Below, one piece after another: positions 2,716-53,332 of a stretch of 64,000 nucleotides of DNA. The notes beneath the pieces are model-generated. The model searched no databases. It was not told where the DNA came from and saw only the letters and a list, made by a program, of their open reading frames with translations. How positions within the stretch are numbered: the stretch's first letter is position 1; the number at the start of each line of letters is the position of its first letter. The stretch is taken from assembly GCA_020632215.1 (NCBI GenBank), contig JACKFZ010000007.1, positions 1,187 to 65,186 of the forward strand, in the 5' to 3' direction. The DNA comes from Candidatus Nomurabacteria bacterium. Lineage in GTDB: Bacteria; Patescibacteriota; Minisyncoccia; Phycocordibacterales; JAACPR01. The translations under genes and the position numbers were made by a program.

Positions 2716-3288
2716 ATGAATCAAACCTTTGTTGCAATCGGAGCTATCATCTATGTACTTGGTAGTTTTGTATATTTCCGAGATACATTGAAAGGTGATA
2801 CGAAACCTAACAAAATATCTTGGGCACTGTGGGCTTTGATATCTTTTGTCGCTACAGCTATTGGGTTATTAGAAGGTGTAGGTTGGGCAGTCTTGCCAGT
2901 CTTCATGTCTGGTTTAGGTCCGGCTATTATTCTTTTTGTTTCTTTTAAAAATAAAAATGCATATTGGAAATTAGGTACTCTAGATTGGACTTGCGGTATT
3001 TTGTCTCTAATCTCTCTAGTTGTTTGGATTATTACCAGAGATGGTATATTGGCTTTGTCTCTGATTATTTTTACAGATGTATTGGCTTCGTTTCCTACCT
3101 TAGTAAAATCTTGGAAATATCCTGAGACAGAATCTGGGATTGCTTACTTGGCTTGGGTTATAAACGCCGCAACAGCTTTTTTCGCAGCTAATAATTATGA
3201 TTTTGTGAACTTAGCTTTTCCTACTTATATAGTTGTTATGGACGGACTGCTATTTATAGCAGCCTATAGAAAGAAATTTAATTTATGA
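2716..3288 (+). CDS. polytopic membrane protein, function unknown
   Basis: 190-aa ORF with 5-6 hydrophobic helices; 4-bp overlap (ATGA) with the next ORF. Confidence 0.4.
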   Translation: MNQTFVAIGAIIYVLGSFVYFRDTLKGDTKPNKISWALWALISFVATAIGLLEGVGWAVLPVFMSGLGPAIILFVSFKNKNAYWKLGTLDWTCGILSLISLVVWIITRDGILALSLIIFTDVLASFPTLVKSWKYPETESGIAYLAWVINAATAFFAANNYDFVNLAFPTYIVVMDGLLFIAAYRKKFNL

Positions 3289-3815
3289 AAAAATATATCG
3301 AATATATTATTTTATTTACTGCAGGAGGTGGTTTAGGTTTTCAGGTTGTTCATTTTTGGGAACATTTGATGCAAGTTTTTAACTGGATATTTGTTCAAAG
3401 ACAATATGCTTATATGACAGGGCTTGGCATGTCAGCTACTAATTATTTTGGGAATTTGTTTTTTTCTGGATATGGTATGTCTGATCAAACGAGATTGGGA
3501 ATGGAAGTTCTGCATCTTGTTGGTAATGGAATTTTTCTAATAGGGATAATTGCTGTTTGGTATTTTATAAAAAATCGTGAAATCTTATGGGCTTTGATTA
3601 TTGAGGCTTTACATTTTTGTGAACATATATCTCTGACTTTTTCATCAATTTTTACAGGACGATCCATCGGTTTTAGTACTTTATATGGTTTAGCAACAGA
3701 TCCACAATTCATGGTGACTTTCAGAGTTTGGTGGCACTTTATCTTAAATCTGGTGCCTAGTGTTTTGATCGTAGTGGGAATTGTATTATTTTTTAGATAT
3801 AAAAAAGTTAATTAA
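3285..3815 (+). CDS. polytopic membrane protein, function unknown
   Basis: 176-aa ORF, multiple hydrophobic segments, translationally coupled to the upstream ORF. Confidence 0.4.
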   Translation: MKKYIEYIILFTAGGGLGFQVVHFWEHLMQVFNWIFVQRQYAYMTGLGMSATNYFGNLFFSGYGMSDQTRLGMEVLHLVGNGIFLIGIIAVWYFIKNREILWALIIEALHFCEHISLTFSSIFTGRSIGFSTLYGLATDPQFMVTFRVWWHFILNLVPSVLIVVGIVLFFRYKKVN

Positions 3816-5408: not shown

Positions 5409-5930
5409 ATGAATGATTTTTTAACACCATTTTTATCATATGCAACTCTGGTAATACACATAGTATTAGTCTGTTTACTTATTTTGTTTTTCTTTCAAAA
5501 AGAAAATAAAATATTTAGGATTATCTTTAAAAATGGAATTTTACTTTCTTTTGTGCTGGCTTTCGTCAGTACTGGTATTAGTTTGTATTATTCTGATTAT
5601 GTTGGTTTTGAACCTTGTGTTTTGTGCTGGTATCAGAGAATACCAATGTATGCCTTGGCAATAATTTTATATCTCTCTATTGCTCGTAAAGATGATAAAT
5701 CAGTTATCCCATATGGATTGGCTCTTTCGGTCGTCGGAACAATCTTGGCCATTTATCATACTTATCTCGCTTACTTTTCTCAGGGTTCAAACACTTGCTC
5801 ACCATTTAGTAGTGTCTCATGTACAACAAAATATTTTAATTATTTTGGGTATATTTCAGTACCAACACTTTCTCTAAGCGCTTTTGTTATCATTACGTTA
5901 TTATTAATAGGTAAGAAGAAACATGACTAA
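5409..5930 (+). CDS. DsbB/BdbC-family disulfide bond formation protein
   Basis: Four TM helices, 'PCVLCWYQRIPMY' first Cys pair and a second Cys pair 'CSPFSSVSC' in the second periplasmic loop. Confidence 0.6.
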   Translation: MNDFLTPFLSYATLVIHIVLVCLLILFFFQKENKIFRIIFKNGILLSFVLAFVSTGISLYYSDYVGFEPCVLCWYQRIPMYALAIILYLSIARKDDKSVIPYGLALSVVGTILAIYHTYLAYFSQGSNTCSPFSSVSCTTKYFNYFGYISVPTLSLSAFVIITLLLIGKKKHD

Positions 5931-17804: not shown

Positions 17805-20018
17805 TTAAACAATTGGCCATTTTTCTACCATCAAGATATTCTTTTCTTTATTTTGAGGTAATGATTGCCAGATTTCTTCTGTGACAAAAGGAGTAAAAGG
17901 GTGAAGAGCTTTCAGTATATTTGTTAATGAATTCAGGAGTAGATTTTTTCTTGAAATTATTTCTTCTGATGTTCCTTTTTCAAAAATATTTTTACTTTCT
18001 TCAAGGATGATGTCTGCAAATTCATGCCATACATAGTGATAAAGTTTTTCACCAGCAAGATAAAGTCTGTAATTTTCTATATCTTCCGTTACTTCTTTTA
18101 GAATTTCTTTTTGACTATCAATGATAGTTTTATCTGCTGGAGAGTAAGCTGAAAAATCTTTTGTATATTCAATATCACTAGTATTTTCAATAACAAATCT
18201 AGAAATATTCCAAAGCTTATTTGCAAACTTTTTATAAGCTTTGATTTTATTCTCTGACATATTACTGTCGCTACCAGGACCAACTCCAATGATGAGAGAA
18301 AGGCGAACAGCGTCAGCTCCGTATTTTTCTGAAACTTCTAATGGATCAATGATGTTACCAAGAGACTTGGACATTTTTCTTCCTTTTTCATCACGAACAA
18401 GTCCATGTAGATAAACACTTTTGAAAGGAATATCTCCAACAAGATATGTGCTCATCAAAATCATTCTAGCAACCCAGAAAAATAGAATGTCATAGCCAGT
18501 TTCTAGCAAATCAGTTGGATGATAATTTTTAAAATCATTCGTCTCTTCGGGCCATCCTAAAGTAGAGAAGGTCCAAAGACCAGAAGAAAACCAAGTGTCT
18601 AAAGTGTCTTCATCTTGAGTCCATCCAGATTCTGTAGGAGCTTCTACACCGACATATATTTCATTTTCTTTGTACCAAACAGGAATTTGATGTCCGTACC
18701 AAATTTGTCTTGAAATACACCAGTCACGCAAATTATCAATCCATTGGAAGTATGTTTTCTCAAATCTATCAGGAACTATATTTATTTGATTTGATCTTAC
18801 AACATGTTGCATCAACTCTTTCAAGGAAACTTCTTGTTCGTTTTTAATACCTTTTAATTTTGAATTTTTAATTTTAAATTTTCTATTTACATCTATAAAC
18901 CACTGTCTCATTATTTGTGGTTCTATAACCGCCTCAGTTCTTTCTGCTGTAGCGATATTGTGAACATAGTTTTCATCTGTTTTTTCGACAAGACCTTTTT
19001 GTGCCAATTTTTCTATGATCTTTTCTCGCGCTTCTCTGATTTTCATACCTGCAAATTCACCAGCGATAGGAAGAAGTTTACCGTACTTGTCGATTATTTG
19101 TTCTTTATCTAAATTATGTCGCTCTGCAATTTCAAAGTCCGTAGAGTCATGCCAAGGAGTGATAGTCATAACACCTGTTCCAAATTCCATATCAACAGAT
19201 TCATCCTTGATAATGGTTGCTGTAATAGGTCCATTAATCCATTCCAATTCTATAGTTTGACCATCTTTGTATTCAGCATATCGTTTATCTTCTGGATGCA
19301 TAACGACATACTTGTCACCAAACTTTGTTTCTGGTCGGGCTGTTCCTATAACGAAAGGACCATATTTAAGATAATAGAATTTACCTTTCTCTTCTTTTCG
19401 AACTATCTCATCATCAGAAATAGTTGTCTGACCTTTTGGATCCCAGTTTACAATTCTATCTCCGCGATAAATCAAGCCATCATCGTACATTTTTTTGAAA
19501 GCTGTTCTTACGGCAACTTCTCTTGTTTTGTCTAATGTAAAAGCTTCTCTAGACCAGTCTAGAGACGAACCCATTTTTTTGGTTTGATTGATTATCGTGT
19601 CGTGACTCTCTTGTGCAAACTGACTAACTTTTTTTATAAATTCTTCTCGGCCCAAATCTTGTTTTCTAATTTTTTCTTTTTCCAAAATTTTCTCAACTTT
19701 TGATTGAGTAGCAATAGCGGCATGATCTGTTCCAGGAACCCACAAAGTTCTTTTTCCTTTCATTCTGTGATATCGGACTATGATGTCTTCGATAGCAAGC
19801 ATGACAGCATGACCTATGTGTAGTGTGCCGGTGACATTTGGTGGAGGAAGAACAATAGAGAACTTTTCTGCATCTTTGTCTGTAACACCAGCTTTGATAC
19901 ATTCATCAGGATTAAAAAAACCACTTTCTTCCCAAAGTTTATATATCTCATCCTCTGTAGCTGTCGGATCGTAAGGTTTAAGAAACTTCTCATCCAGATG
20001 CTCATTAGCTTTATCCAT
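17805..20018 (-). CDS. valS: valyl-tRNA synthetase (compact 737-aa form)
   Basis: 'PPPNVTGTLHIGHA', 'RYHRMKGKRTLWVPGTDHAAIATQ', 'KMSKSLGN'; lacks the long C-terminal coiled coil. Confidence 0.85.
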   Translation of the reverse strand: MDKANEHLDEKFLKPYDPTATEDEIYKLWEESGFFNPDECIKAGVTDKDAEKFSIVLPPPNVTGTLHIGHAVMLAIEDIIVRYHRMKGKRTLWVPGTDHAAIATQSKVEKILEKEKIRKQDLGREEFIKKVSQFAQESHDTIINQTKKMGSSLDWSREAFTLDKTREVAVRTAFKKMYDDGLIYRGDRIVNWDPKGQTTISDDEIVRKEEKGKFYYLKYGPFVIGTARPETKFGDKYVVMHPEDKRYAEYKDGQTIELEWINGPITATIIKDESVDMEFGTGVMTITPWHDSTDFEIAERHNLDKEQIIDKYGKLLPIAGEFAGMKIREAREKIIEKLAQKGLVEKTDENYVHNIATAERTEAVIEPQIMRQWFIDVNRKFKIKNSKLKGIKNEQEVSLKELMQHVVRSNQINIVPDRFEKTYFQWIDNLRDWCISRQIWYGHQIPVWYKENEIYVGVEAPTESGWTQDEDTLDTWFSSGLWTFSTLGWPEETNDFKNYHPTDLLETGYDILFFWVARMILMSTYLVGDIPFKSVYLHGLVRDEKGRKMSKSLGNIIDPLEVSEKYGADAVRLSLIIGVGPGSDSNMSENKIKAYKKFANKLWNISRFVIENTSDIEYTKDFSAYSPADKTIIDSQKEILKEVTEDIENYRLYLAGEKLYHYVWHEFADIILEESKNIFEKGTSEEIISRKNLLLNSLTNILKALHPFTPFVTEEIWQSLPQNKEKNILMVEKWPIV

Positions 20019-20071
20019 ATCGTCAAATACTAGCAGAAATACGGTCTAAAATGAAGGTGGTAAGGGAGTAG

Positions 20072-20113
20072 ATAAAAAATCGCCGGGGCGGGAATGTATG
20101 ATATACATCCCGC
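20072..20113 (-). terminator. Rho-independent terminator on the minus strand at the end of the GC-rich non-coding region
   Basis: Minus strand 'GCGGGATGTATATCATACATTCCCGCCCCGGCGATTTTTT'. Confidence 0.5.
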
Positions 20114-20940
20114 ATGATCCCGGCGCAAGGTTTCAGAGTAGTTGATCCGAAAGTTGTTAAAAACTCGCATTGTGTTTCCAGAACTGGAACAATAGAAGAC
20201 CGTGCCTCTATCTGGTTTCACCCAACAATGAAAGTCACACAGTGCTTAGGCGACCTGTGGTAACGTAACTTTCTTCCCTAGGGACCCCGAAGAGTCCTTT
20301 CACACATCACCCGTCAACCTTAATATTTCAACCACAACATTACAATGAAATTAAATATTAGTCAAATAGAAAAAAAGGCGAAGAGGAGAGAGCCTTTTTG
20401 TGTGATGAGCAAGTCGAATCTCGGCGCTTCTGCCAAAGTTCCGGATTCTGGGCTCCTCTCCTCTTCGTCCCACCAAAATACTACTAAAAGTTAAATATGT
20501 CAAACAAAAAGCAAATAAAAAGAAAGGGCGCGCTCGTAATCCAGTTTGTTGTCAGCTCAGGAATCGGACCACGAGGCGCCATAAAATCTGGAGAAAAGGA
20601 GGGGTAGAGAGCACTTGCAACAGTGGAATCTTTACTACCTCCTCTTCTTTCTTTGATGTTGATAGCGCTCTGGGCCACCGCCGGGGGTAAGATTGGGTGG
20701 ATGAGCCCCATCCTGCTACCCAATCACCACACCGGCGGTGGCCTCTGAGACAACAACACAAGCCAAATCTACATTTGATTCTACATTTAACACAGAGATT
20801 GTCAAATCACAAACAAACAAAAAGAAAAGAAGGGCCGGAGCAACCCAAGGTTGGCGCGATAACAACGGGTTATCGCTTTGGAAACGTCACCAACCCTCCT
20901 GGTTCGGGTTGTCCGGCGTTCTGAGTCTAACTCTTTCTGT

Positions 20941-22209
20941 CTAAGAATTCAAACTTAAATTTCCTTCTGCTTTGATTTCTGGATTTACAACAGCTTGCTC
21001 TCTAAAACTTTTTAAATATCCAGCCATACCTATCATCACTGCATTGTCAGTTGATAGCTTTTGCTCAGGGAAAAAGACTTCGATATCTTTTTCTTCAACT
21101 AACTCTTGTAGGTTTTTTCTAATATATTGATTTGATATAACACCTCCTCCAACTATTAGATTTTTAATATCAAATTGATCTATAGCATCTGTTACTTTTT
21201 TCTTTAAAACATCGACAATAGCTTGTTCAAATTCTCTAGCAATTATTTTCTTCATATCATCAGAAATTTCTCCTAGCTCTTGAGTTTTGTATAAAACAGC
21301 AGTTTTTAATCCTGAAAAAGAAAAATCAAAGTCTTTACTATTGACCATTGGTCTTGGGAAGGAGATTTCAGAAAAAGGTAAATCTTTTTCTCTAGCTTCC
21401 TCTGCTAGCTTGGCAATTTCTGGTCCACCTGGATATGGGAGACCTAATAATCTAGCCACTTTGTCATAGGCTTCACCGACAGCATCATCTTTGGTTTGAC
21501 CTATAACTTCATATTTTCCCCATGATTTTATTAAAACTAACTCAGTATGACCGCCAGAAATAAGAAGAGCTAAGGTAGGGAAGTTGATTTTCGGATTTCG
21601 AATTTCGGATTTAGTGCTTCCTCGATTTTGATTAATCAAAATCGAGGATATGTGTCCTTCCATATGATTCACAGGTAAAAGAGGTATTTGCCAAACAATA
21701 GAAAGCGCTTTTGCAAAATTAATACCTGTCCATAGGCAAGGTTCTAGTCCAGGTCCAGATGTTACGGTAATAAGGTCAAGATCAGGTTTTTCGTGTGTTT
21801 CCAAAAAAGAAAAAAGTTTTTCAGTTAATTGAGGTTCTCTTTCCAAAAGTTTTTGGATTTCATCTGTTTTGTCATTCAAGACTTGTTCTGGGATTTCATC
21901 TGTTTTGTCATCCCGGACTTGATCCGGGATCTTGTTAGAATTACTTTCTGTTTGGAATTTGGAATTTGGAATTTGGTTTTTTGTGATTTGGAATTTGGAA
22001 TTTAATTCCTCCAAAAGGGGCACCAAATTTCTCGCATGTTCTCTTTTTGCCACAGCAGGAAAAACCCCTCCATATTCTTTGTGTATATCTATTTGAGAGT
22101 TTAAAGCTTCTGAAATAATTTCAAACTTAGGATTATCTAAATCACCTTCTGCTTCAATAATTGCTAAAGCCGTTTCATCACAAGATGTTTCTATGGATAG
22201 GATTTTCAT
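20941..22209 (-). CDS. tsaD: tRNA N6-adenosine threonylcarbamoyltransferase TsaD (Kae1/Gcp) with a ~60-aa low-complexity insertion
   Basis: 'MKILSIETSCDETALAII', 'TVTSGPGLEP', 'LLISGGHTELVL', 'FSGLKTAV' TsaD motifs; the insertion carries 'IPDQVRDDKTDE/IPEQVLNDKTDE' and 'NSKFQ' repeats. Confidence 0.85.
   Translation of the reverse strand: MKILSIETSCDETALAIIEAEGDLDNPKFEIISEALNSQIDIHKEYGGVFPAVAKREHARNLVPLLEELNSKFQITKNQIPNSKFQTESNSNKIPDQVRDDKTDEIPEQVLNDKTDEIQKLLEREPQLTEKLFSFLETHEKPDLDLITVTSGPGLEPCLWTGINFAKALSIVWQIPLLPVNHMEGHISSILINQNRGSTKSEIRNPKINFPTLALLISGGHTELVLIKSWGKYEVIGQTKDDAVGEAYDKVARLLGLPYPGGPEIAKLAEEAREKDLPFSEISFPRPMVNSKDFDFSFSGLKTAVLYKTQELGEISDDMKKIIAREFEQAIVDVLKKKVTDAIDQFDIKNLIVGGGVISNQYIRKNLQELVEEKDIEVFFPEQKLSTDNAVMIGMAGYLKSFREQAVVNPEIKAEGNLSLNS
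21856..22012. repeat. DNA-level tandem repeats inside the tsaD coding sequence
   Basis: (GGAATTT)n runs 'TTGGAATTTGGAATTTGGAATTTGG...GGAATTTGGAATTT' and a direct repeat 'GGGATTTCATCTGTTTTGTCAT' x2; contains the palindrome 'GACTTGATCCGGGATC', also seen at 35650. Confidence 0.6.
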
Positions 22210-35996: not shown

Positions 35997-36887
35997 TCAG
36001 TAGTACTCGCCGTGGCGATAATCGAAGTTGTCGAATATGCCGCTCATGGTCAGCATGATTTTGTCGAGCTCCAAACCTTTGCGAATGATCTTTGGACGCA
36101 GATCAGAGAGATCGCCTTCACGGTTGATGAAGGAGACCATGACACCTTGCTTGCAACGATGGGACAGATCCTTGTCCGGCTGCTGGTCACGAACGTAGGA
36201 GTTGGCTTCAACTGTCATGTCTACTCCTGAGAGGATGCGTTCACCAACACCTTCCAGACGGCCGCGATTGCCTTGGCCAGAAGGATTGGCGGACGAAGCA
36301 AAGCACAGTTTCCTGTGGTCTTGCCACATCTTGCGGGCGATTTCTTCCGATGGATTTCCGAAATTGATGACGAAGCAGCTGGTGCCTCGTTGATCCATCA
36401 TCAGCTCTCTTGATCCGTCATCGGGAATGATAGGATCATTATCTTTTTCCCAAGGGAGAATGCACCCCAATCGGATGTTGTGAACTTCACACTCCAGGTA
36501 AAGTCGTTCGATTTTGTCTGTGGTCTTTGCGAGGCAGAAGATCTGTTTTGCCGATGTACAGAGCACGACACTGGGCTTATTCGGATTTCGTAGTTTAAGG
36601 TCGAACGTTCTTTTCAGACCTTCATAGTCGGTGGCCATGACGATGTAGCCGGCCTTGGTAGGGGCGACAATTGCACCTCCTTTTTGTCGTAGCATGGTGC
36701 ATGCCACACCAACCGTCTCCTGATTTTTGATAGGATCATCGATATCCCATCGGTATTGTATTTTTTCCTGTGGCATTTTTCTTGCGGGTTGATGTTGGGT
36801 TGTGACGACAGTAAAAACTTCGCCGTTATTTTCTGCGAGCAATATTAACTTTTTATCAATAAAAAGCAAGTTATATATTTTACCCAA
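35997..36887 (-). CDS. second YrdC/Sua5-family protein (296 aa), GC-rich relative to the genome
   Basis: 'GGAIVAPTKAGYIVMATDYEGLKRTFDLKLRNPNKPSVVLC', 'FASSANPSGQG' YrdC motifs; about 50% GC by eye versus roughly 33% for neighbours. Confidence 0.55.
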   Translation of the reverse strand: MGKIYNLLFIDKKLILLAENNGEVFTVVTTQHQPARKMPQEKIQYRWDIDDPIKNQETVGVACTMLRQKGGAIVAPTKAGYIVMATDYEGLKRTFDLKLRNPNKPSVVLCTSAKQIFCLAKTTDKIERLYLECEVHNIRLGCILPWEKDNDPIIPDDGSRELMMDQRGTSCFVINFGNPSEEIARKMWQDHRKLCFASSANPSGQGNRGRLEGVGERILSGVDMTVEANSYVRDQQPDKDLSHRCKQGVMVSFINREGDLSDLRPKIIRKGLELDKIMLTMSGIFDNFDYRHGEYY

Positions 36888-37257
36888 ACACTTTCAGCAA
36901 CCTCTCTTCCTCCTCCTCCATCTTTTTCCCATGATCTAAACCTTTTAAATGCAACATTCCGTGTATAGCTAAATATTTGATATATAAAGTTTTTGTCATT
37001 TCAAAATCTTTTGCTTCGGCTTTGGATTTTTCTAAACAAATAAAAATTTCCCCAGTATTTTTGTCGACAGGGAAGCTAAGAACATTTGGGACATAAGTTT
37101 TTTTTCTGTAATCTTTGTTTAACTTCTTGGCAGTTTTTGGGTCCACAAAAACAAGAGATAGATCATACTTTTTACCTAAGATTTTTTCTTTAATACGAAC
37201 AAAATCCTCTTTAGATGAAAGAGGATTTTGTTTGGAGATGTTTTGGTACGAAAACAT
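36880..37257 (-). CDS. ybeY: rRNA maturation RNase YbeY
   Basis: 'HGMLHLKGLDHG' zinc-binding HxxxHxxxxxH motif. Confidence 0.8.
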   Translation of the reverse strand: MFSYQNISKQNPLSSKEDFVRIKEKILGKKYDLSLVFVDPKTAKKLNKDYRKKTYVPNVLSFPVDKNTGEIFICLEKSKAEAKDFEMTKTLYIKYLAIHGMLHLKGLDHGKKMEEEEERLLKVFG

Positions 37258-46498: not shown

Positions 46499-47026
46499 AT
46501 GTTTTCTGATCCAGAACATAATATCGAGCAGTTTGCTGTTGACCCTGGATCAAAAGTTGTTGACTTGGGGTCAGGAGCAGGTTTTTATAGCTTAGCTTTA
46601 TCAAAGGTTGTTGGTTCTAGTGGTAAAGTTTATGCCGTGGATGTTCAACAAGAACTTTTGACTAAATTAAAAAATGAGTCTATTCGACAAGGTGTAAGCA
46701 ATATTGAAATTATTTGGGGAGATATAGAACATCGAAATGGTACTATGTTAGCCGATAATTCTATTGATCGGGTTATCATTGCAAATACTTTATTTCAAAT
46801 CACTCACAAAGAAGAAGTCTTAGCTGAAGCGAGACGAATTTTAAAACCGAAAGGAACTGTTTTGTGTATAGATTGGACTGACTCTTTTGGTGGGCTTGGA
46901 CCTCCCAATCATTATGTTTTTAAAGAAGATCAAGCCGAGATTCTTTTTAGAAAAGCTGGTTTTGAGTTTGTTAGAAAAATAGAGGCTGGTGATCATCATT
47001 ACGGTATGATATATAGAAAATCATGA
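46499..47026 (+). CDS. class I SAM-dependent methyltransferase
   Basis: 'VVDLGSGAGFYSLALSKVVGSSGKVYAVDV' motif I, 'ILKPKGTVLCIDW'. Confidence 0.7.
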   Translation: MFSDPEHNIEQFAVDPGSKVVDLGSGAGFYSLALSKVVGSSGKVYAVDVQQELLTKLKNESIRQGVSNIEIIWGDIEHRNGTMLADNSIDRVIIANTLFQITHKEEVLAEARRILKPKGTVLCIDWTDSFGGLGPPNHYVFKEDQAEILFRKAGFEFVRKIEAGDHHYGMIYRKS

Positions 47027-48333
47027 ACAAAATTTCACCTTTACAATTAATTCTACTTGTCGTTGCTGGATTTGCCATTGTGGTAGCAGTTATTATATTT
47101 GCTTTCAATAGAAGTAATTCTGGTTCTACAGAAGCGGAAGTGGTAATGTGGGGTACTTTTTCTCCTGATCTAATGATTAATATTGGCAGAACTCTTCAGC
47201 AAAGTAATGTTGATATTTCTAACATTGTTTATATCCAAAAAGATCCAAATACTATCGAAGATGAATTTGTAAGCGCTCTAGCTGAAGGTGAAGGACCAGA
47301 TTTAATTATTCTTAATCAAGATCAGATAATTTCAAATTATAATCGAGTGATTAAGATTCCTTATGAGACTTTTGCCTTGCGAGATTATTTAAATACTTTC
47401 ATTTCAGAAGGTGATCTTTTTGCCTCCGATAACGGTATTGTTGCTGTCCCTCTTTTCATTGATCCTATGGTTATGTATTGGAACAAAAGTCTGTTTTCGG
47501 CCGCTGGTATTTCTTCGCCACCAAAATATTGGAGTGAAGTGATGGGTATTGCGCCTCGTCTAACAAATAGCGATAGTAACTTGATAGTAAGTCAAAGCGC
47601 AGTTGCTTTAGGAGAATTTAGAAATATTAATCACGCCAAGGAAATTTTCTTAAACTTAATATTGCAAGCAGGTAATAATGTAGTAATACCAAATACTGAT
47701 GAAAATGTACGAGGAAGTTACAAGGTTATTTTAGATGAAAGACTCGGCTATACAGTTATTCCAACTGTAGCAGCTATGAACTTTTTCACCCAATTTTCTA
47801 ATCCAACTAAGGATGTCTACTCTTGGAATAGATCTTTACCAAACTCTCTAGATAGATTCATTGGTGGAGACTTAGCTATGTATTTTGGTTTTGTTAGTGA
47901 GCAAAATACTATTCGTCAGAAGAACCCAAACCTAGATTTTGATGTTTCTACTATGCCACAGTCTCAGAATGCTTCAGAACCAAAAGTCTTTGGTCGAATG
48001 TCGGCCATTGCTATTTCTCGCAATAGTCAAAATCCACAAGGTGCTTTCAATGCCATTTTAAAGTTAACTAGTCAGCTTGTTCAAAATCAGATCAAGATCG
48101 AAACTGGCCTACCACCAGTTAGAAGAGATCTGTTGCAGGCTGATCCAAATGATCCTTTTGAAAGCATTTTCTTCACTTCCGCTTTGTGGTCAAAAGGTGT
48201 TAGGGAAGTAGATGCACAAAAAACAACAGAAATTTTGCAATCAATGGTAGAATCTTATGTGACGGGGCGTTCAGATGCTGGAGAAGCGGTAACAAAAGCA
48301 CAGACAGAAATGGAGTTGTTACTTGATCAATAA
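47023..48333 (+). CDS. extracellular solute-binding protein (ABC transporter SBP, family 1-like) with N-terminal TM anchor
   Basis: N-terminal hydrophobic anchor, size and composition typical of sugar SBPs; 4-bp overlap with the upstream gene. Confidence 0.55.
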   Translation: MNKISPLQLILLVVAGFAIVVAVIIFAFNRSNSGSTEAEVVMWGTFSPDLMINIGRTLQQSNVDISNIVYIQKDPNTIEDEFVSALAEGEGPDLIILNQDQIISNYNRVIKIPYETFALRDYLNTFISEGDLFASDNGIVAVPLFIDPMVMYWNKSLFSAAGISSPPKYWSEVMGIAPRLTNSDSNLIVSQSAVALGEFRNINHAKEIFLNLILQAGNNVVIPNTDENVRGSYKVILDERLGYTVIPTVAAMNFFTQFSNPTKDVYSWNRSLPNSLDRFIGGDLAMYFGFVSEQNTIRQKNPNLDFDVSTMPQSQNASEPKVFGRMSAIAISRNSQNPQGAFNAILKLTSQLVQNQIKIETGLPPVRRDLLQADPNDPFESIFFTSALWSKGVREVDAQKTTEILQSMVESYVTGRSDAGEAVTKAQTEMELLLDQ

Positions 48334-48335
48334 CT

Positions 48336-48863
48336 ATGAAAACAAAAGGAATAAAAAGAAGTTTAATAATATCGTTTATAGTTGGATTAATTGCTTTCTT
48401 CTTTCTTTTTAATTTGGCAGGGGCACAGAGTGGGAGAGAAACTAACGCTGTTTCTGTTCCAAGTGGTGGCTCTGGTAGTTCACAGAGTAGTGGCACTATT
48501 ATTTCTGGTGGCTTGGTGCCGTGTGGAAATGGGAATGCTGACGGCAACCTTGTTGAAATTAATGCTGGTTCGTGCACCTTTCAAGACCTTATAGAGTTAG
48601 TTAATCGGATTATAAAATTTCTAGTAATAGCTTCTAGCTTTGTCTTTGTTATTATTGTTGTCTACGCGGGGTGGATTTATATTAGTTCAGGAGGTGATAC
48701 AGGAAAAGTGGCTCAAGCACATAAGATGTTTTTTAATTCTGTTGTAGGGATTATAATAGTTATATCGGCATGGTTGATTATAAAAATGATTTTAGAAGGT
48801 CTAAAGACAGATTCAAAGTTTCAAGAAGTTTTATCGTTTATAGATTTATTATGGCTCGTATAA
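48336..48863 (+). CDS. VirB2/TrbC-like pilin family protein (paralogue 1 of 7)
   Basis: Signal/TM N-terminus, Gly/Ser-rich linker, Cys pair 'LVPCGNG...CTFQDLIELVNRIIKFL', two C-terminal TM helices. Confidence 0.5.
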   Translation: MKTKGIKRSLIISFIVGLIAFFFLFNLAGAQSGRETNAVSVPSGGSGSSQSSGTIISGGLVPCGNGNADGNLVEINAGSCTFQDLIELVNRIIKFLVIASSFVFVIIVVYAGWIYISSGGDTGKVAQAHKMFFNSVVGIIIVISAWLIIKMILEGLKTDSKFQEVLSFIDLLWLV

Positions 48864-49213
48864 GAAAAGTAAAATTATTTATTGTTAGTTTGACTCTATT
48901 CCTACTCCCATTTTTTGTTTTTGCACAAGATGCTGTAGCTAATCCAAAAGGTATCCATAATCCTTTGAGTAAACTTGGTTCTGTTAAAGATGTTCTTTTG
49001 GCTTTGTTAAACATAGTCGTTCAGATAGGAGTGATTGCCGTAGTCTTTTTCATAGTTTTTGCTGGATTTAAAATGGTTTGGGCTAGAGGTAATCCAGAAG
49101 AGTTGGCGAAAGCAAAAAATATTTTATGGTACACCATGATTGGGGGAGCTGTTGTTTTGGGTGCAGAGGCCATTTTACAACTTATAAATAACACAATTGA
49201 TCAATTAAGGTAA
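48851..49213 (+). CDS. VirB2/TrbC-like pilin family protein (paralogue 2)
   Basis: 'MARIRKVKLFIVSLTLFLLPFFVFAQD' signal peptide; 'FAGFKMVWARGNPEELAKAKNILWYTMIGGAVVLGAEAIL'. Confidence 0.5.
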   Translation: MARIRKVKLFIVSLTLFLLPFFVFAQDAVANPKGIHNPLSKLGSVKDVLLALLNIVVQIGVIAVVFFIVFAGFKMVWARGNPEELAKAKNILWYTMIGGAVVLGAEAILQLINNTIDQLR

Positions 49214-49214
49214 T

Positions 49215-49586
49215 ATGCTGGTATTCTTTAAAAAAAATAAAGGACTACTTATATCTCTAACACTGATAACAACACCATTTGTTACTAATGCTGCTACTAC
49301 TGATTTATTTGAATATTTTAATGGTTTGACCAATAGTATTGGTTTTTTTATTAGATTTGCTATGTTGTGGGGGCTGACATTCTTTATATTTGGAGTTTTT
49401 AGATATATCAATGCTGGTGAAAGTCCAGAAAAAAGATCATCGGGAGCAAAAGTTATTACGCACGGACTAATAGCTTTGTTTCTAGCAGTATCTGTTTGGG
49501 CAATTGTCACTCTTTTGGTAAATACTACTATAGGCAAGGATGGCAATGTTAATCAATTTGCACCAAAAAATATAACTGATCTATGA
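49215..49586 (+). CDS. VirB2/TrbC-like pilin family protein (paralogue 3)
   Basis: Same architecture; 'FGVFRYINAGESPEKRSSGAKVITHGLIALFLAVSVWAIV'. Confidence 0.5.
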   Translation: MLVFFKKNKGLLISLTLITTPFVTNAATTDLFEYFNGLTNSIGFFIRFAMLWGLTFFIFGVFRYINAGESPEKRSSGAKVITHGLIALFLAVSVWAIVTLLVNTTIGKDGNVNQFAPKNITDL

Positions 49587-50032
49587 TAAAAGACCTTATT
49601 TTTTTAAAAGAAAATATATTTAAAGTATTAATGGTAGTTACTCTTGCTTTATTTGTTACATCTGTTTTTTATGTTAATTATGTTGATGCACAAGTCAAAA
49701 CACCTGGGCTACAATTGGCAACTCAGGGCAGTAGTTATTGTTCCAAGCTTGGCGGTAGCGGTGCAAATGTAAAAGTCTTTGCATATTGTATTACGCAACT
49801 CGCTGTAGGATCATTTGTGCCGTATATATTTGCACTTGCCTTACTGTCTTTTATGGTGGCTATCTTTTGGTATATTCGTAATGCCGATAATGAACAAAAG
49901 AGAGCAGAAGCTATTAAGTGGATTATTTGGAGTATTGTTGGCTTATTCTTTATGGTCACAGTTTGGACATTTGCCAAGTTCTTTGGAGACTTCTTTGGGG
50001 CTCCAGCAGGGATTATTCCACAGTTTCAATAA
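49583..50032 (+). CDS. VirB2/TrbC-like pilin family protein (paralogue 4)
   Basis: 'MVAIFWYIRNADNEQKRAEAIKWIIWSIVGLFFMVTVW'. Confidence 0.5.
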   Translation: MIKDLIFLKENIFKVLMVVTLALFVTSVFYVNYVDAQVKTPGLQLATQGSSYCSKLGGSGANVKVFAYCITQLAVGSFVPYIFALALLSFMVAIFWYIRNADNEQKRAEAIKWIIWSIVGLFFMVTVWTFAKFFGDFFGAPAGIIPQFQ

Positions 50033-50094
50033 TAGGGTATAAAGATGCTTTTTTAGGGTATAATGTAGAGCGTAATAATTAATTCATTTTTGTT

Positions 50095-50541
50095 ATGAAA
50101 AAAATAGAGAAAATAGCTTTTACTTCTTTAGCAGTTTTGAGTAGTGTTCTGATAGGTGGTTCAAACAGTGCTCATGCGCAATCTGGTACTGGTAGTATAA
50201 CGTCTGGTTCCGGTGGTGTAAGTTCTACTGGTTTGAACACAGGATCAATTCCTAGCAACTCTAACAACGATTTGAATGGTTTCTTGGATCAAATCTCAGC
50301 TATATTGAGAAAGGCCATTGAGATTATAATGGGATTAGCTGTGGTGGTATTTCTTTGGGGAGTGGTTATGTACATAATATCTAAAAGTCCTGAAGAGCAA
50401 GCCAAGGCCAAGGGTTATATGATCTGGGGTATTATCGGACTATTTGTGATGGTTTCTATTTGGGCATTGGTAGGTTTGTTGACTGGCACATTCTTTGGTG
50501 GAGCAATCAGACAAACTCCTCCTGCTATTCCAACACTTTAG
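50095..50541 (+). CDS. VirB2/TrbC-like pilin family protein (paralogue 5)
   Basis: 'VMYIISKSPEEQAKAKGYMIWGIIGLFVMVSIWALVGLL'. Confidence 0.5.
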   Translation: MKKIEKIAFTSLAVLSSVLIGGSNSAHAQSGTGSITSGSGGVSSTGLNTGSIPSNSNNDLNGFLDQISAILRKAIEIIMGLAVVVFLWGVVMYIISKSPEEQAKAKGYMIWGIIGLFVMVSIWALVGLLTGTFFGGAIRQTPPAIPTL

Positions 50542-50657
50542 GACATATATTTTTCCACATTAGTTTTTTTGATTTATAAAATAGCTGTAAATGTGGTATT
50601 ATATAAGTCGATAAACCTTTTGGTTATCAATTAATTTAAAACTAATTTATTTAAAAA

Positions 50658-51035
50658 ATGAAAGCTTTAAAAATAGGAACATTTGTACTTTCAGTTGCTG
50701 CACTCCCTCTAGTTTCTAGTGCCCAATTTGTTGCAACGACAGGAGGTACAGGAAGATTGGAGTCTTTGTTAAAATCTGTTGGTGACCTTATTGCTGCTTT
50801 GATACCGATTATTATGGGACTAGCTCTGATCGTCTTTCTTTGGGGAGTTTTGCTTTATGTTATCTCTAAGTCACAAGAAGATAAGGCAGCTGCTAGAAGT
50901 TATATGATCTGGGGTATTATCGGACTATTTGTGATGGTTTCTGTTTGGGGAATTGTAACAATACTTTCCGACGCTGTCTTCGGTGGAGCAAGAATTGATT
51001 CTCCTCCTGTTTTACCTAGATTCACTCCTAGATAA
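50658..51035 (+). CDS. VirB2/TrbC-like pilin family protein (paralogue 6)
   Basis: 'LLYVISKSQEDKAAARSYMIWGIIGLFVMVSVWGIV', near-identical C-terminus to paralogue 5. Confidence 0.5.
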   Translation: MKALKIGTFVLSVAALPLVSSAQFVATTGGTGRLESLLKSVGDLIAALIPIIMGLALIVFLWGVLLYVISKSQEDKAAARSYMIWGIIGLFVMVSVWGIVTILSDAVFGGARIDSPPVLPRFTPR

Positions 51036-51054
51036 TTGATAATAATTCAACTAC

Positions 51055-51462
51055 TTGAAGAGTCCTATGAAAAAATGTATTGATTTTTCGAAAAAGAAAT
51101 TTTTCCTGCTCAGTGCATTTATTCTAGGCTCTTTTTTTATTTCTTTTGACGTTGATGCGGCTGAAAATATAAAAGTGCCTTACAAAAAAGTAGATTTACT
51201 TTCTAAAATCGCTATAAATATAGTCAATCCAATTATTGTTATGTTTTTTGGGTTAGCTTTAGCTTATTTTGTTTTTGGAGTGCTTAGATTTATTGTTGGT
51301 GGAGAGAATGAGGAAGTTAGACAAAAAGGAAGAGACCACATTCTCTGGGGATTGGTTGGTATGGGAATGATGTTTGGCGCTTGGTCAATATTAAGAATTG
51401 TCACTAATACTTTCAGTTTGAGTGATCAACCATTGAATCTTCTCCAAGGTAGTCAAAAATAA
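51055..51462 (+). CDS. VirB2/TrbC-like pilin family protein (paralogue 7)
   Basis: 'LRFIVGGENEEVRQKGRDHILWGLVGMGMMFGAWSILRIV'. Confidence 0.5.
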   Translation: MKSPMKKCIDFSKKKFFLLSAFILGSFFISFDVDAAENIKVPYKKVDLLSKIAINIVNPIIVMFFGLALAYFVFGVLRFIVGGENEEVRQKGRDHILWGLVGMGMMFGAWSILRIVTNTFSLSDQPLNLLQGSQK

Positions 51463-51464
51463 AA

Positions 51465-51515
51465 AGCGCCCATTACCGGTTCCTCTCGAAAGAGGTTCCG
51501 GCGGGCGTTTTTTTG
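51465..51515. terminator. strong bidirectional GC-rich hairpin terminator
   Basis: 'AAAAAGCGCCCATTACCGGTTCCTCTCGAAAGAGGTTCCGGCGGGCGTTTTTTTGG'. Confidence 0.7.
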
Positions 51516-51527
51516 GTTGGAATGAAT

Positions 51528-52100
51528 TTACAGATCTTCGTGGATGATGAAGATCTGTCCGAAGGTTGGTTGGTTCGGCCTGCTTAGGACCAATCTGATC
51601 CGGACAATCTCCACATCGTGGAGATACAGCTTTTTGCCCGGTAACCAATTTGTTGGTTCAGAGTCAGTAGACCCATCAGGATGAGTCACTTCAAACTGAA
51701 ACCAATTTTCGTCTTGCGGTCTCTTGAACCGCACTGTCTTCCCTCCGACTTGGATTGGTGGTGACCAGTCGGTGAAGATGTTTTTCTTCTCGATCACGGG
51801 TTGGCTGTCAACTCGTTCGAGCAGGTACCTTTCTTTCGCCCACTCATGGTTTTTGTAGGCGAAATAGACGAATGACCCCACGAGGGAACCAACCGTCAGT
51901 ACCCAAAACATTCTCCAGAGGAACTGGCCGAAGCCTAGAACGAAGGACTTTGTCCCAGGCCAGATATTTACCCTACCTCCGCTTGATGATTGGGAGGGGG
52001 GATCTTCGTCAGGCGTAGTCTTGTTTTTGAGAAAAAACCAAACCGAACCAATTATTAATGCAATCCAAAAGATTGCTATTCCAGAGATCCACCAAATCAT
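51528..52100 (-). CDS. membrane protein, possible NfeD-like partner of the upstream SPFH protein
   Basis: Two N-terminal TM helices and a soluble beta-rich C-domain; 4-bp overlap with the SPFH gene; GC-rich. Confidence 0.3.
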   Translation of the reverse strand: MIWWISGIAIFWIALIIGSVWFFLKNKTTPDEDPPSQSSSGGRVNIWPGTKSFVLGFGQFLWRMFWVLTVGSLVGSFVYFAYKNHEWAKERYLLERVDSQPVIEKKNIFTDWSPPIQVGGKTVRFKRPQDENWFQFEVTHPDGSTDSEPTNWLPGKKLYLHDVEIVRIRLVLSRPNQPTFGQIFIIHEDL

Positions 52101-53332
52101 GACTCACCTCCTTCTTGTTCTTGTGTGTGACTTTGTTCTTTAGTACGGCTTACCATGATGCCGATAGGGGACGAAGATCCCCCTTCGGAGTACACGATGC
52201 CACTTTCATTCTTGCCAATTGCATTGGCTCGACGATCTTGAACAACCTGGTCCATAGCATGCCCCAGATCGCTCAATCCAGCCTCATGTAGTTTCTCTAA
52301 TACGATTTTCCACCCTTTACCTTCTGCATCCGCTCTAGCCAAAAGACCTTCTGCTTCTGCTCTCAGTAATTCTTCTCGTGCATTTGCTTCACCAATTCCT
52401 CTCTCGGTAGCAGCATCACGATCACCTTCAGCTTTTCGGCGTTCAGCATCAGCTTTGAGTTCAGCGATGCGTACTTCTACTTGGGCTGCTTCAAGATCTG
52501 CTTGTTCAGGGATGACTCCATATGCCTTTAGGAATAGGCGATTCAGACGTAATCCGTAAGTACCAGCAACTCGATTTACCCGTTCTTGGATGAAATTGTT
52601 GAAAAACGATGCAGTGAATGTCTCAATTCCTTCTCGAAATTCCACGATACTCCGTGGGACATTGTAATTTGGATATTTTTCTCTCTCTGCTGGTGTAAGA
52701 GTATGAGAAAATAAGTCGTTGACTGTATTATCCAGTACATCCTCAACATTTGCCAGATCCACATGATAGCGTAGTGCAAAAAGTACTGGGTTTATGCATT
52801 CCCATTCACAACGAAATAGGAAATCCAAGCTACCTTCAGATAGTTCCACTGCTGGGACTATTTGGGGACGCATGAATGTCCTGCGAATTGCCCAGATAGT
52901 TTTTCTTCTTGATGTAATTGAACTCCGAATATCCAGAGACGACATTTGTGTCGTGCCCTGACCTTCTGTCTCACTGTTATTGAGCTTAACAGCATCAATT
53001 TCAAATGACAGGACTTTCATTGCTGGACTGATAGATAACCACACCCATCCAAACAATTTGTACAACAAAGTGTGAGGATATTGCGGGTTATCTAATGTTG
53101 GTGCTTGTGTTGCACCATTTGGTGATAAGTTAAATCCTAGATCACCACTACCAGAGGCAATGAAACCTTTCTCGTACCCATCGCTGCGGCCAGCAAGAAC
53201 AAAGTGTTCCGCTGGTGCATTCGTGAAGAATGTGTGTGGTGGATTTTTTGAGAAGTAACTGACAAAAAGGAAGCCAAAGACAACCAATGTTATTAGTGTG
53301 AGAACTATGAGAACTATCAGTATTGTTTCCAT
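52097..53332 (-). CDS. SPFH/band-7 (flotillin/stomatin-like) domain membrane protein
   Basis: N-terminal TM helix and the Ala/Glu-rich coiled coil 'AAQVEVRIAELKADAERRKAEGDRDAATERGIGEANAREELLRAEAEG' characteristic of the SPFH C-terminal region; about 50% GC. Confidence 0.5.
   Translation of the reverse strand: METILIVLIVLTLITLVVFGFLFVSYFSKNPPHTFFTNAPAEHFVLAGRSDGYEKGFIASGSGDLGFNLSPNGATQAPTLDNPQYPHTLLYKLFGWVWLSISPAMKVLSFEIDAVKLNNSETEGQGTTQMSSLDIRSSITSRRKTIWAIRRTFMRPQIVPAVELSEGSLDFLFRCEWECINPVLFALRYHVDLANVEDVLDNTVNDLFSHTLTPAEREKYPNYNVPRSIVEFREGIETFTASFFNNFIQERVNRVAGTYGLRLNRLFLKAYGVIPEQADLEAAQVEVRIAELKADAERRKAEGDRDAATERGIGEANAREELLRAEAEGLLARADAEGKGWKIVLEKLHEAGLSDLGHAMDQVVQDRRANAIGKNESGIVYSEGGSSSPIGIMVSRTKEQSHTQEQEGGES

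Follow-up and report, generated by a model that had tools for sequence, protein, structure and literature searches.

Tandem arrays of genes for VirB2-like pilins are a described feature of Patescibacteria. In Southlakia epibionticum ML1 (Saccharibacteria), six genes of family PF18895 (SEML1_0014-0019) adjoin genes for VirB6-like, PrgI and DUF87/VirB4 proteins of a type IV secretion system (T4SS), and all six were essential in transposon sequencing (Wang et al. 2023, PMC10633639). Quinonero-Coronel et al. (2025, PMC12102498) used PF04956 and PF18895 to screen 3,035 genomes of Patescibacteria. Among the assemblies that contain VirB4, they reported 1,948 with VirB2-like genes, which lie close to virB4 in 1,135 cases, and they counted 441 arrays, each of 2-11 such genes, in 383 assemblies; within-array identity was 25% on average and 54% at most. 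Here we describe seven such genes (p1-p7) at positions 48336-51462 of a 64,000-nucleotide stretch of a Candidatus Nomurabacteria metagenome-assembled genome (MAG) (GCA_020632215.1, positions 1,187 to 65,186 of the 66,457-bp contig JACKFZ010000007.1); this whole stretch is referred to below as the window, and positions are counted from its first nucleotide. The locus is a real but ordinary example of the published kind of array and no new type of system. What it adds is a set of ancient, ordered and individually conserved paralogues, and a Paceibacteria array that is fixed in a methyltransferase-solute-binding protein (SBP)-pilin unit away from virB4, by which the methyltransferase and the SBP homologue are named as two candidate partner proteins.

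Like the S. epibionticum array, whose proteins measure 103-185 aa, p1-p7 stand in tandem on one strand of a patescibacterial genome, diverge in sequence and are alike in structure, and two members of that array touch PF04956 below its threshold, as p2 does here. The S. epibionticum array, however, lies inside a T4SS cluster and its six members are experimentally essential, whereas the seven genes described here lie beside gyrA and follow those for the methyltransferase and the SBP, and no T4SS core gene was found in the 64 kb. By the definition of Quinonero-Coronel et al. (PMC12102498; at least two PF18895/PF04956 genes in tandem or one non-pilin gene apart) they count as an array, and their mutual identity (mean 23%, maximum 47%, the latter between p5 and p6) is in line with the published 25% and 54%. 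The published arrays are most abundant in Microgenomatia and Saccharimonadia, and virB4 neighbourhoods were analysed in that study, whereas the present array belongs to Paceibacteria (Nomurabacteria) and is not linked to virB4. A term search of the same paper returned no mention of a gyrA or solute-binding-protein context, and the parts of it covered here likewise do not mention a methyltransferase-SBP context or positional orthology.

Three further kinds of system can be compared. The VirB2 T-pilin of the Agrobacterium Ti plasmid (PF04956) resembles p1-p7 in its length of ~100-120 aa, in a pair of hydrophobic helices with a short loop between them and in a signal peptide cut ahead of Gln; canonical VirB2 is, however, encoded in single copy between virB1 and virB3, whereas here the host is a monoderm and the sequence relation is sub-threshold. 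The Mbov_0395 family (NF045849) comes from a monoderm (Tenericutes) context of the mating-pair-formation type MPF-FATA and gives full-length sub-threshold matches, but its gene is single-copy in a mobile integrative and conjugative element (ICE), whereas the present array is chromosomal and linked to housekeeping genes. Bartonella and Anaplasma carry several divergent VirB2-like genes side by side, as here; in these diderm pathogens the copies have been interpreted as antigenic or host-range variants, whereas orthology and purifying selection at the present locus point to fixed, specialised subunits.

We consider it likely, with a probability of roughly 70%, that p1-p7 are Sec-exported, signal-peptidase-processed hairpin subunits with fixed and distinct roles in an envelope or surface structure that serves a T4SS-like machine encoded elsewhere. 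Signal peptidase I would cut the N-terminal signal peptide (at A|Q in most members), and in the mature, membrane-embedded protein both termini would face outwards and a short charged loop would face inwards. On the analogy of T4SS pilins, extraction and stacking of the subunits might then produce an envelope-spanning or surface structure for the monoderm-type (MPF-FATA-like) T4SS-like machine, which is present in most Patescibacteria and which S. epibionticum needs in order to grow as an epibiont. The set would be a specialised one (p1 with a long exposed segment that is disulfide-bonded or bears a domain, p2 resembling TrbC, p5 and p6 close to the consensus and a distinct p7), its seven members probably forming a heteromeric structure or acting as major and minor subunits, and it would be transcribed together with the methyltransferase and the membrane-anchored SBP homologue. 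Family membership, topology, gene organisation, orthology and selective constraint come from the analysis itself; polymerisation, dependence on VirB4 and VirB6 and a role for the SBP homologue or the methyltransferase are parts of this reading that we infer. The T4SS-like machine and its unusual pilin array belong to the small number of components found to be essential in a cultivated patescibacterium, which gives them interest for the open question of how these bacteria feed on their hosts; a 2025 review regards the systems of Patescibacteria as unique among monoderms in their pilus-making potential and puts forward, as speculation, a conduit by which material could be taken up from the host (PMC12857230).

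Seven PF18895 genes in tandem

A listing of open reading frames (ORFs) in the 46-54 kb region places p1-p7 on the plus strand between 48336 and 51462, exactly where a reading of the sequence alone, made before any database search (hereafter the sequence-only reading), had seen seven consecutive small genes. The NCBI annotation calls them hypothetical proteins (locus tags H6775_03545 to H6775_03575). Each of the proteins scores above the gathering threshold that Pfam sets for PF18895 (T4SS_pilin; 28.5-50.1 against 26.6 bits, E 1.7e-6 to 3e-13), and the same family is matched by 80 of 80 aligned relatives. A hidden Markov model of the family, run over all window ORFs of at least 50 aa, retrieved p1-p7 and nothing else in the 64 kb, so the array is not a product of chance. 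Judged by these profile matches, the seven proteins are firmly placed in the Patescibacteria 'VirB2-like pilin' family PF18895. The connection to episymbionts of the candidate phyla radiation that the sequence-only reading had drawn is borne out as well: the window comes from a Candidatus Nomurabacteria MAG, and published work describes arrays of this sort in Patescibacteria (PMC12102498, PMC10633639).

The first gene, p1 (48336-48863, 175 aa, 28.7 bits), encodes the longest variable segment, which is Gly/Ser-rich, and an extra C-terminal helix. The second, p2 (48851-49213, 120 aa, 38.1 bits), is the array member nearest to canonical TrbC/VirB2. Its longest ORF runs from 48770 to 49213 (147 aa), but the internal ATG at 48851 gives a proper Lys/Arg-rich start and is most likely the true one, which leaves an overlap of 13 nt with p1. 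These are followed by p3 (49215-49586, 123 aa, 31.6 bits), by p4 (49583-50032, 149 aa, 38.3 bits), which has Cys53 and Cys69 within its variable segment, and, after a 62-nt spacer, by p5 (50095-50541, 148 aa, 50.1 bits), whose variable segment is Gly/Ser/Thr-rich. Of all seven, p6 (50658-51035, 125 aa, 43.1 bits) is the best conserved and lies nearest to the family consensus, and the array ends with p7 (51067-51462, 28.5 bits), for which the ATG at 51067 gives the 131 aa of the NCBI annotation and an alternative TTG at 51055 would give 135 aa. The sequence-only reading is confirmed in its coordinates for the array, with corrections to the start of p2 (most likely 48851, not 48770) and to p7, which is annotated at 131 aa.

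The architecture proposed in that reading (signal peptide, variable region, two C-terminal helices) was recovered by three approaches. A signal-peptide heuristic finds in each of the seven N-termini 2-5 Lys/Arg among the first 12 residues, a hydrophobic stretch and Ala at -1, and the predicted signal-peptidase site reads A|Q in five of the seven. In a 19-residue hydropathy scan both C-terminal hydrophobic helices are visible in five of seven proteins; helix 1 alone was detected in p7, and the N-terminal hydrophobic segment of p2 was missed with the 48851 start. The AlphaFold model of p6 (mean predicted local distance difference test, pLDDT, 80.5) is a helical hairpin of residues 32-69 and 73-107, and that of p1 (pLDDT 71) shows a signal helix at 6-29, a low-confidence segment at 30-81 and a hairpin of 82-117 and 122-158. 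With all seven above the PF18895 threshold, similarity to a pilin family and the expected topology are both found. Two details of the sequence-only reading hold in part. The conserved core 'W-x-IIG-LF-MV-VW' (WGIIGLFVMVSVW) is clean in p4-p6 and in the family consensus but degenerate in p1, p2, p3 and p7. The Cys pair of p1 (C63/C80) is present and conserved but is not confined to this member, since p4 has a second pair (C53/C69), and both pairs are kept in the orthologues. The window also encodes a DsbB homologue (PF02600, 9.1e-17) at 5409-5930, which fits the conserved extracytoplasmic Cys pairs of p1 and p4.

Distances between consecutive genes are 2 nt from the SBP gene to p1 and then -13, 1, -4, 62, 116 and 31 nt along p1-p7, and the three spacers upstream of p5, p6 and p7 contain -10-like boxes. 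The spacer before p5 (50033-50094) has the motif TAGGGTATAA in duplicate, ending in TATAAT at ~50066; the one before p6 (50542-50657) has TGgTATTAT at ~50594, and the stretch 50536-50660 folds better than its shuffles (z = -2.6). These two spacers may hold putative internal promoters or a regulatory structure that would raise the expression of p5-p7. The strong terminator that had been noted at the end of the array is confirmed at 51461-51514 as an intrinsic terminator with a GC-rich stem, an A-run before it and a T-run after it, common to the array and the convergent minus-strand genes (minimum free energy -29.3 kcal/mol, z = -4.60, with 0 of 200 shuffles equally stable).

Orthology, order and selective constraint

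The age of the paralogues can be judged from a related locus on a 13.4-kb contig (L001), in which the order Lactamase_B_3 / GyrA / methyltransferase / SBP / seven pilins is identical. Same-position pairs of pilins from the two loci score 300-515 and off-diagonal pairs at most 256; scores this far above all others at the same position imply that the duplications predate the split from L001. The pair p5-p6 also predates this split, and neither near-identical copies nor other signs of recent duplication were seen among the seven. Recent tandem amplification, as an origin of the array, is ruled out by the positional orthology.

Amino-acid identity between the two loci is 57-79% for the pilins (p3 57%, p4 62%, p6 79%; p1 59% over globally aligned columns and 51% in the local BLASTP alignment) and 77-88% for GyrA, the SBP homologue, the methyltransferase and the Lactamase_B_3 protein. 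The conservation is unevenly spread within the pilins: the hairpin core is 74% identical with a pN/pS of 0.26, whereas between the signal peptide and helix 1 identity falls to 35%, gaps affect 34 of 144 residues and pN/pS is 0.61. No partition of more than three codons has a pN/pS above 1. For the orthologue pairs dN/dS is 0.11-0.40, values that are approximate because dS is saturated between the two genomes.

In more distant loci, where GyrA is only ~66% identical, part of the set can still be followed. Reciprocal best hits were obtained for p2, p6 and p7 in all seven loci compared and for p1 in four; in L007, L014 and L015 the partner of p1 is the gene that opens the array. The counterpart of p2 is second in most loci, first in L016 and last in L007, and that of p7 is the last array gene in six of seven loci and the sixth of seven in L007. 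By comparison p3, p4 and the split of p5 and p6 are lineage-specific.

These data bear directly on the proposal of the sequence-only reading that seven divergent copies suggest antigenic or functional diversification. Under the antigenic explanation, proposed also for the VirB2 copies of Bartonella and Anaplasma and raised as a possibility for Patescibacteria (PMC12102498), the genes would be alternative versions of one pilin that change the exposed surface or match different hosts. The high divergence of the paralogues would suit it, as would the predicted exposed segment, which is the fastest-evolving part and rich in insertions and deletions. Alternative versions of a single pilin are, however, hard to reconcile with a positional orthologue of each paralogue in L001 and with an order of p1, p2, p6 and p7 that is kept at ~66% GyrA identity, both of which indicate that the copies are ancient and individually retained. 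The explanation is further disfavoured by the absence of any larger partition with pN/pS above 1, by the lack of near-identical copies (even the closest pair, p5-p6, being older than the L001 split) and by the six S. epibionticum members, which are individually essential and do not fit redundancy. We regard antigenic or host-range variation as quite improbable here. By these comparisons the seven paralogues are old, ordered and non-redundant subunits, with a core under purifying selection and a predicted exposed N-terminal segment that evolves fast; an ordered, non-redundant set with pN/pS not exceeding 1 argues against recent amplification and against antigenic-variation cassettes alike, and the conserved order favours a heteromeric structure or one of major and minor subunits over antigenic variation.

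Relation to characterised VirB2/TrbC pilins

The sequence-only reading had named the proteins VirB2/TrbC-like, which is upheld for all seven at the level of PF18895 but not at that of PF04956. Besides the saturation of dS, several results of this kind weigh against a pilin-like structure serving a T4SS-like machine. The PF04956 (TrbC) threshold of 27.9 bits is not reached by any of the seven: p2 comes closest with 25.4 bits (E 1.6e-5), p1 scores 15 bits, the other five have no match, and two of the 80 relatives match at E < 0.01. A profile comparison by hhalign with six bona fide VirB2/TrbC proteins, each flanked by virB1 and virB3 on MPF_T plasmids, gave a probability of 3.5% for the whole family and 0.5% for the seven paralogues, neither of them significant. 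A Foldseek search of the PDB with the p6 model returned only non-significant helical-bundle matches (best E 1.5; an archaeal conjugative pilin at rank 36), a search that is uninformative, since the fold of a helical hairpin lacks the complexity needed for discrimination. Among PDB sequences the family profile ranks the pKM101 pilin TraM second, at a non-significant E of 0.26. No PF18895 member has been demonstrated to polymerise into an extracellular pilus (PMC12857230), and a surface filament for this family, none ever having been observed, is something we infer. Finally, no T4SS core gene (VirB4, VirB6, PrgI/VirB3, TrsD) was found among the scanned ORFs of the 64-kb window, nor, for the seven related loci whose genes carry Pfam annotations, at less than 10 kb from the array.

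The second gene gives the closest approach to characterised pilins. p2 and its orthologues repeatedly touch PF04956 below the threshold, and against the same six VirB2 proteins the p2 orthologue group reaches an hhalign probability of 12% (E 0.0023), with 62 co-linear columns across both helices; its profile retrieved only a designed protein from the PDB sequences. All seven proteins have full-length sub-threshold matches to NF045849, a pilin-like conjugal transfer protein of Mycoplasma ICEs (E 1e-3 to 3.8e-8, 18-33 against 40 bits). Although membership of PF04956 itself is lacking, p1-p7 are probably remote homologues of VirB2 and probably work like it.

It could also be that the family name overstates the case and that p1-p7 are small bitopic or hairpin proteins that stay in the membrane, as part of a translocation channel or as membrane organisers. 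Significant sequence or fold matches to solved pilins are indeed absent, T4SSs of the Gram-positive type normally have no pili (PMC12102498, PMC12857230), and p1 has a weak DctQ-like match, other hydrophobic families also appearing at low scores. Yet the p2 orthologue group matches TrbC/VirB2 consistently over the whole hairpin, if below the threshold, the predicted cleavable signal peptide and the A|Q site are held in common with VirB2, and N-terminal extracellular PKD domains in relatives suggest display beyond the membrane, so that we think this explanation very unlikely. The DctQ match of p1 (21.4 against 28.3 bits) was treated as hydrophobic-helix noise.

The PKD domains are found in the Paceibacterota locus L014 (7805-9461), where the first two array members, of 333 and 226 aa, carry PKD_4 domains N-terminal to the T4SS_pilin hairpin. 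These fusions suggest that the N-terminal segment is displayed and able to carry adhesion-type domains.

Gene neighbourhood and other features of the window

Upstream of the array the window encodes, in this order, a Lactamase_B_3 protein, GyrA, a methyltransferase and an SBP homologue. The methyltransferase (46499-47026, plus strand, 175 aa, class I SAM-dependent, Pfam Methyltransf_31 at 7.4e-20) is encoded by what is probably the leading gene of the transcription unit, the end of which overlaps the start of the SBP gene by 4 nt. The SBP homologue (47023-48333, plus strand, 436 aa, Pfam SBP_bac_8/SBP_bac_1) is a predicted extracellular protein, anchored to the membrane by a hydrophobic segment at residues 1-32; no ABC permease or ATPase gene was found beside its gene among the window ORFs scanned. 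The arrangement suggests that the methyltransferase, SBP and p1-p7 genes form one long transcription unit, possibly with internal promoters. Downstream follow two convergent genes, four tRNAs and genes for IF-2, a cysteine-desulfurase-like aminotransferase, a trypsin-like protease and ClpB.

Besides L001, ten more places of Paceibacteria type (L003, L004, L005, which is identical to L006, L007, L014-L018 and one JGI place without DNA) have the methyltransferase-SBP unit followed by 4-7 pilin genes. A scan of a genome collection with p6 gave six loci, a number that sufficed for synteny and was too small for statistics. In each of the 11 related loci in which the upstream flank is visible, the array directly follows the methyltransferase and SBP genes, which are -4 to ~110 nt apart, with 2-26 nt from SBP to the first pilin gene and with SBP homologues of 32-82% identity. 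The wider frame (Lactamase_B_3 / gyrA ... RbfA / IF-2 / aminotransferase / ClpB) is common to most of these loci; in L016 gyrA is displaced and the methyltransferase-SBP-array unit is intact. In the MAG labelled 'Simkania sp.' (Chlamydiota) a Paceibacteria-type gyrA/methyltransferase/SBP/pilin block occurs at identical coordinates in JAGXTH010000020.1 and JAGXTH010000100.1 (L005 and L006), where it is probably a binning contaminant duplicated in the assembly.

The methyltransferase and the orphan SBP may be functional partners of the pilins. Such a partnership could go further, the methyltransferase, SBP and hairpin proteins forming an envelope complex of their own (a surface scaffold or uptake device) that works without VirB4 and VirB6. 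This would account for the contiguity of the three parts in all 11 loci, L016 included, for the absence of T4SS genes within 10 kb of the array from every annotated locus and for the SBP being an orphan with no ABC permease or ATPase nearby. The region from gyrA to clpB is, however, collinear throughout, so that synteny alone may reflect shared ancestry; moreover, the PF18895 genes of S. epibionticum sit inside a T4SS cluster that has no SBP, and pilin genes are near virB4 in 1135 of 1948 assemblies (PMC12102498). We hold a T4SS-independent module to be unlikely, and continue to prefer hairpin subunits that serve a T4SS-like machine encoded elsewhere. A more far-reaching combination, which we offer as a long shot, is that the Paceibacteria pilin set, the orphan SBP and the methyltransferase form one operon building a heteromeric surface conduit, possibly without a linked VirB4 cluster, in which the first subunits would bear adhesive or disulfide-stabilised heads (PKD domains in some relatives) and the SBP would capture host-derived molecules at this conduit or through it; if true, this would give a T4SS-type pilus a role in nutrient uptake.

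The GC content of the array equals that of the window (0.347 against 0.353), which together with the conserved synteny with housekeeping genes rules out a horizontal-transfer island. A tblastn search with p5 against 72,556 plasmids returned zero matches, and so gives no evidence of this family on sequenced plasmids.

The two convergent minus-strand genes that follow the terminator (51528-53332) encode proteins of 190 and 411 aa with one N-terminal hydrophobic segment each. The sequence-only reading had seen a GC-rich SPFH island here. The composition is as described (GC 0.449 against 0.353 for the window; GC at third codon positions 0.56 in the 190-aa ORF), but neither protein matches an entry of Pfam, NCBIfam or the PDB, and the product of 52097-53332 (minus strand) has no Pfam match, to Band_7 or any other family, even at E <= 10. 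An orthologue of the 411-aa protein (52%) occurs in L001 only, other genes taking the equivalent spot in more distant loci; the gene at that position in L018 has a weak Band_7 match, and one pairwise comparison aligned its product with the 411-aa protein at E 0.032. An SPFH identity of the downstream genes is an unconfirmed possibility. A similar rise in GC is seen elsewhere in the window: besides the 51-53 kb region, two other 1-kb stretches (20001-21000 and 36001-37000) reach GC 0.45-0.46 against a window mean of 0.35.

At the far end of the window, 45 kb from the array, a plus-strand gene cut by the window start (1-2712, at least 903 aa) encodes an ATPase that the sequence-only reading had likened to type IV coupling proteins and mentioned together with the array. 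The domain assignment stands: a VirD4/TraD-type domain spans residues ~466-806, and two Pfam cut-offs are exceeded (TrwB_AAD_bind 32.4 against 20.5 bits, with the match confined to the P-loop stretch at residues 482-530; TraG-D_C 26.3 against 22). All NCBIfam matches are far below their cut-offs, among them that to VirD4-like CD1115 (7e-11, residues 466-806); PDB TrwB is matched in the P-loop only (E 0.0033); and the visible N-terminal 465 aa, from which the true N-terminus is cut off, contain no transmembrane segment. Coupling-protein homologues are frequent in Patescibacteria (5,713 in 2,918 genomes, or about two per genome, 148 of them near virB4), and the S. epibionticum copy is non-essential (PMC12102498). 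The neighbours of the ATPase gene are an ORF with four transmembrane segments and genes for a DUF6008 protein, Sua5 and MsrB, with no adjacent T4SS or relaxase gene, and nothing that we found ties this ATPase to the array. The first of these neighbours (2716-3288, 190 aa, four hydrophobic segments) has no family match and is followed by the DUF6008 gene at 3285-3815; together with the ATPase gene these two may constitute a small module of their own.

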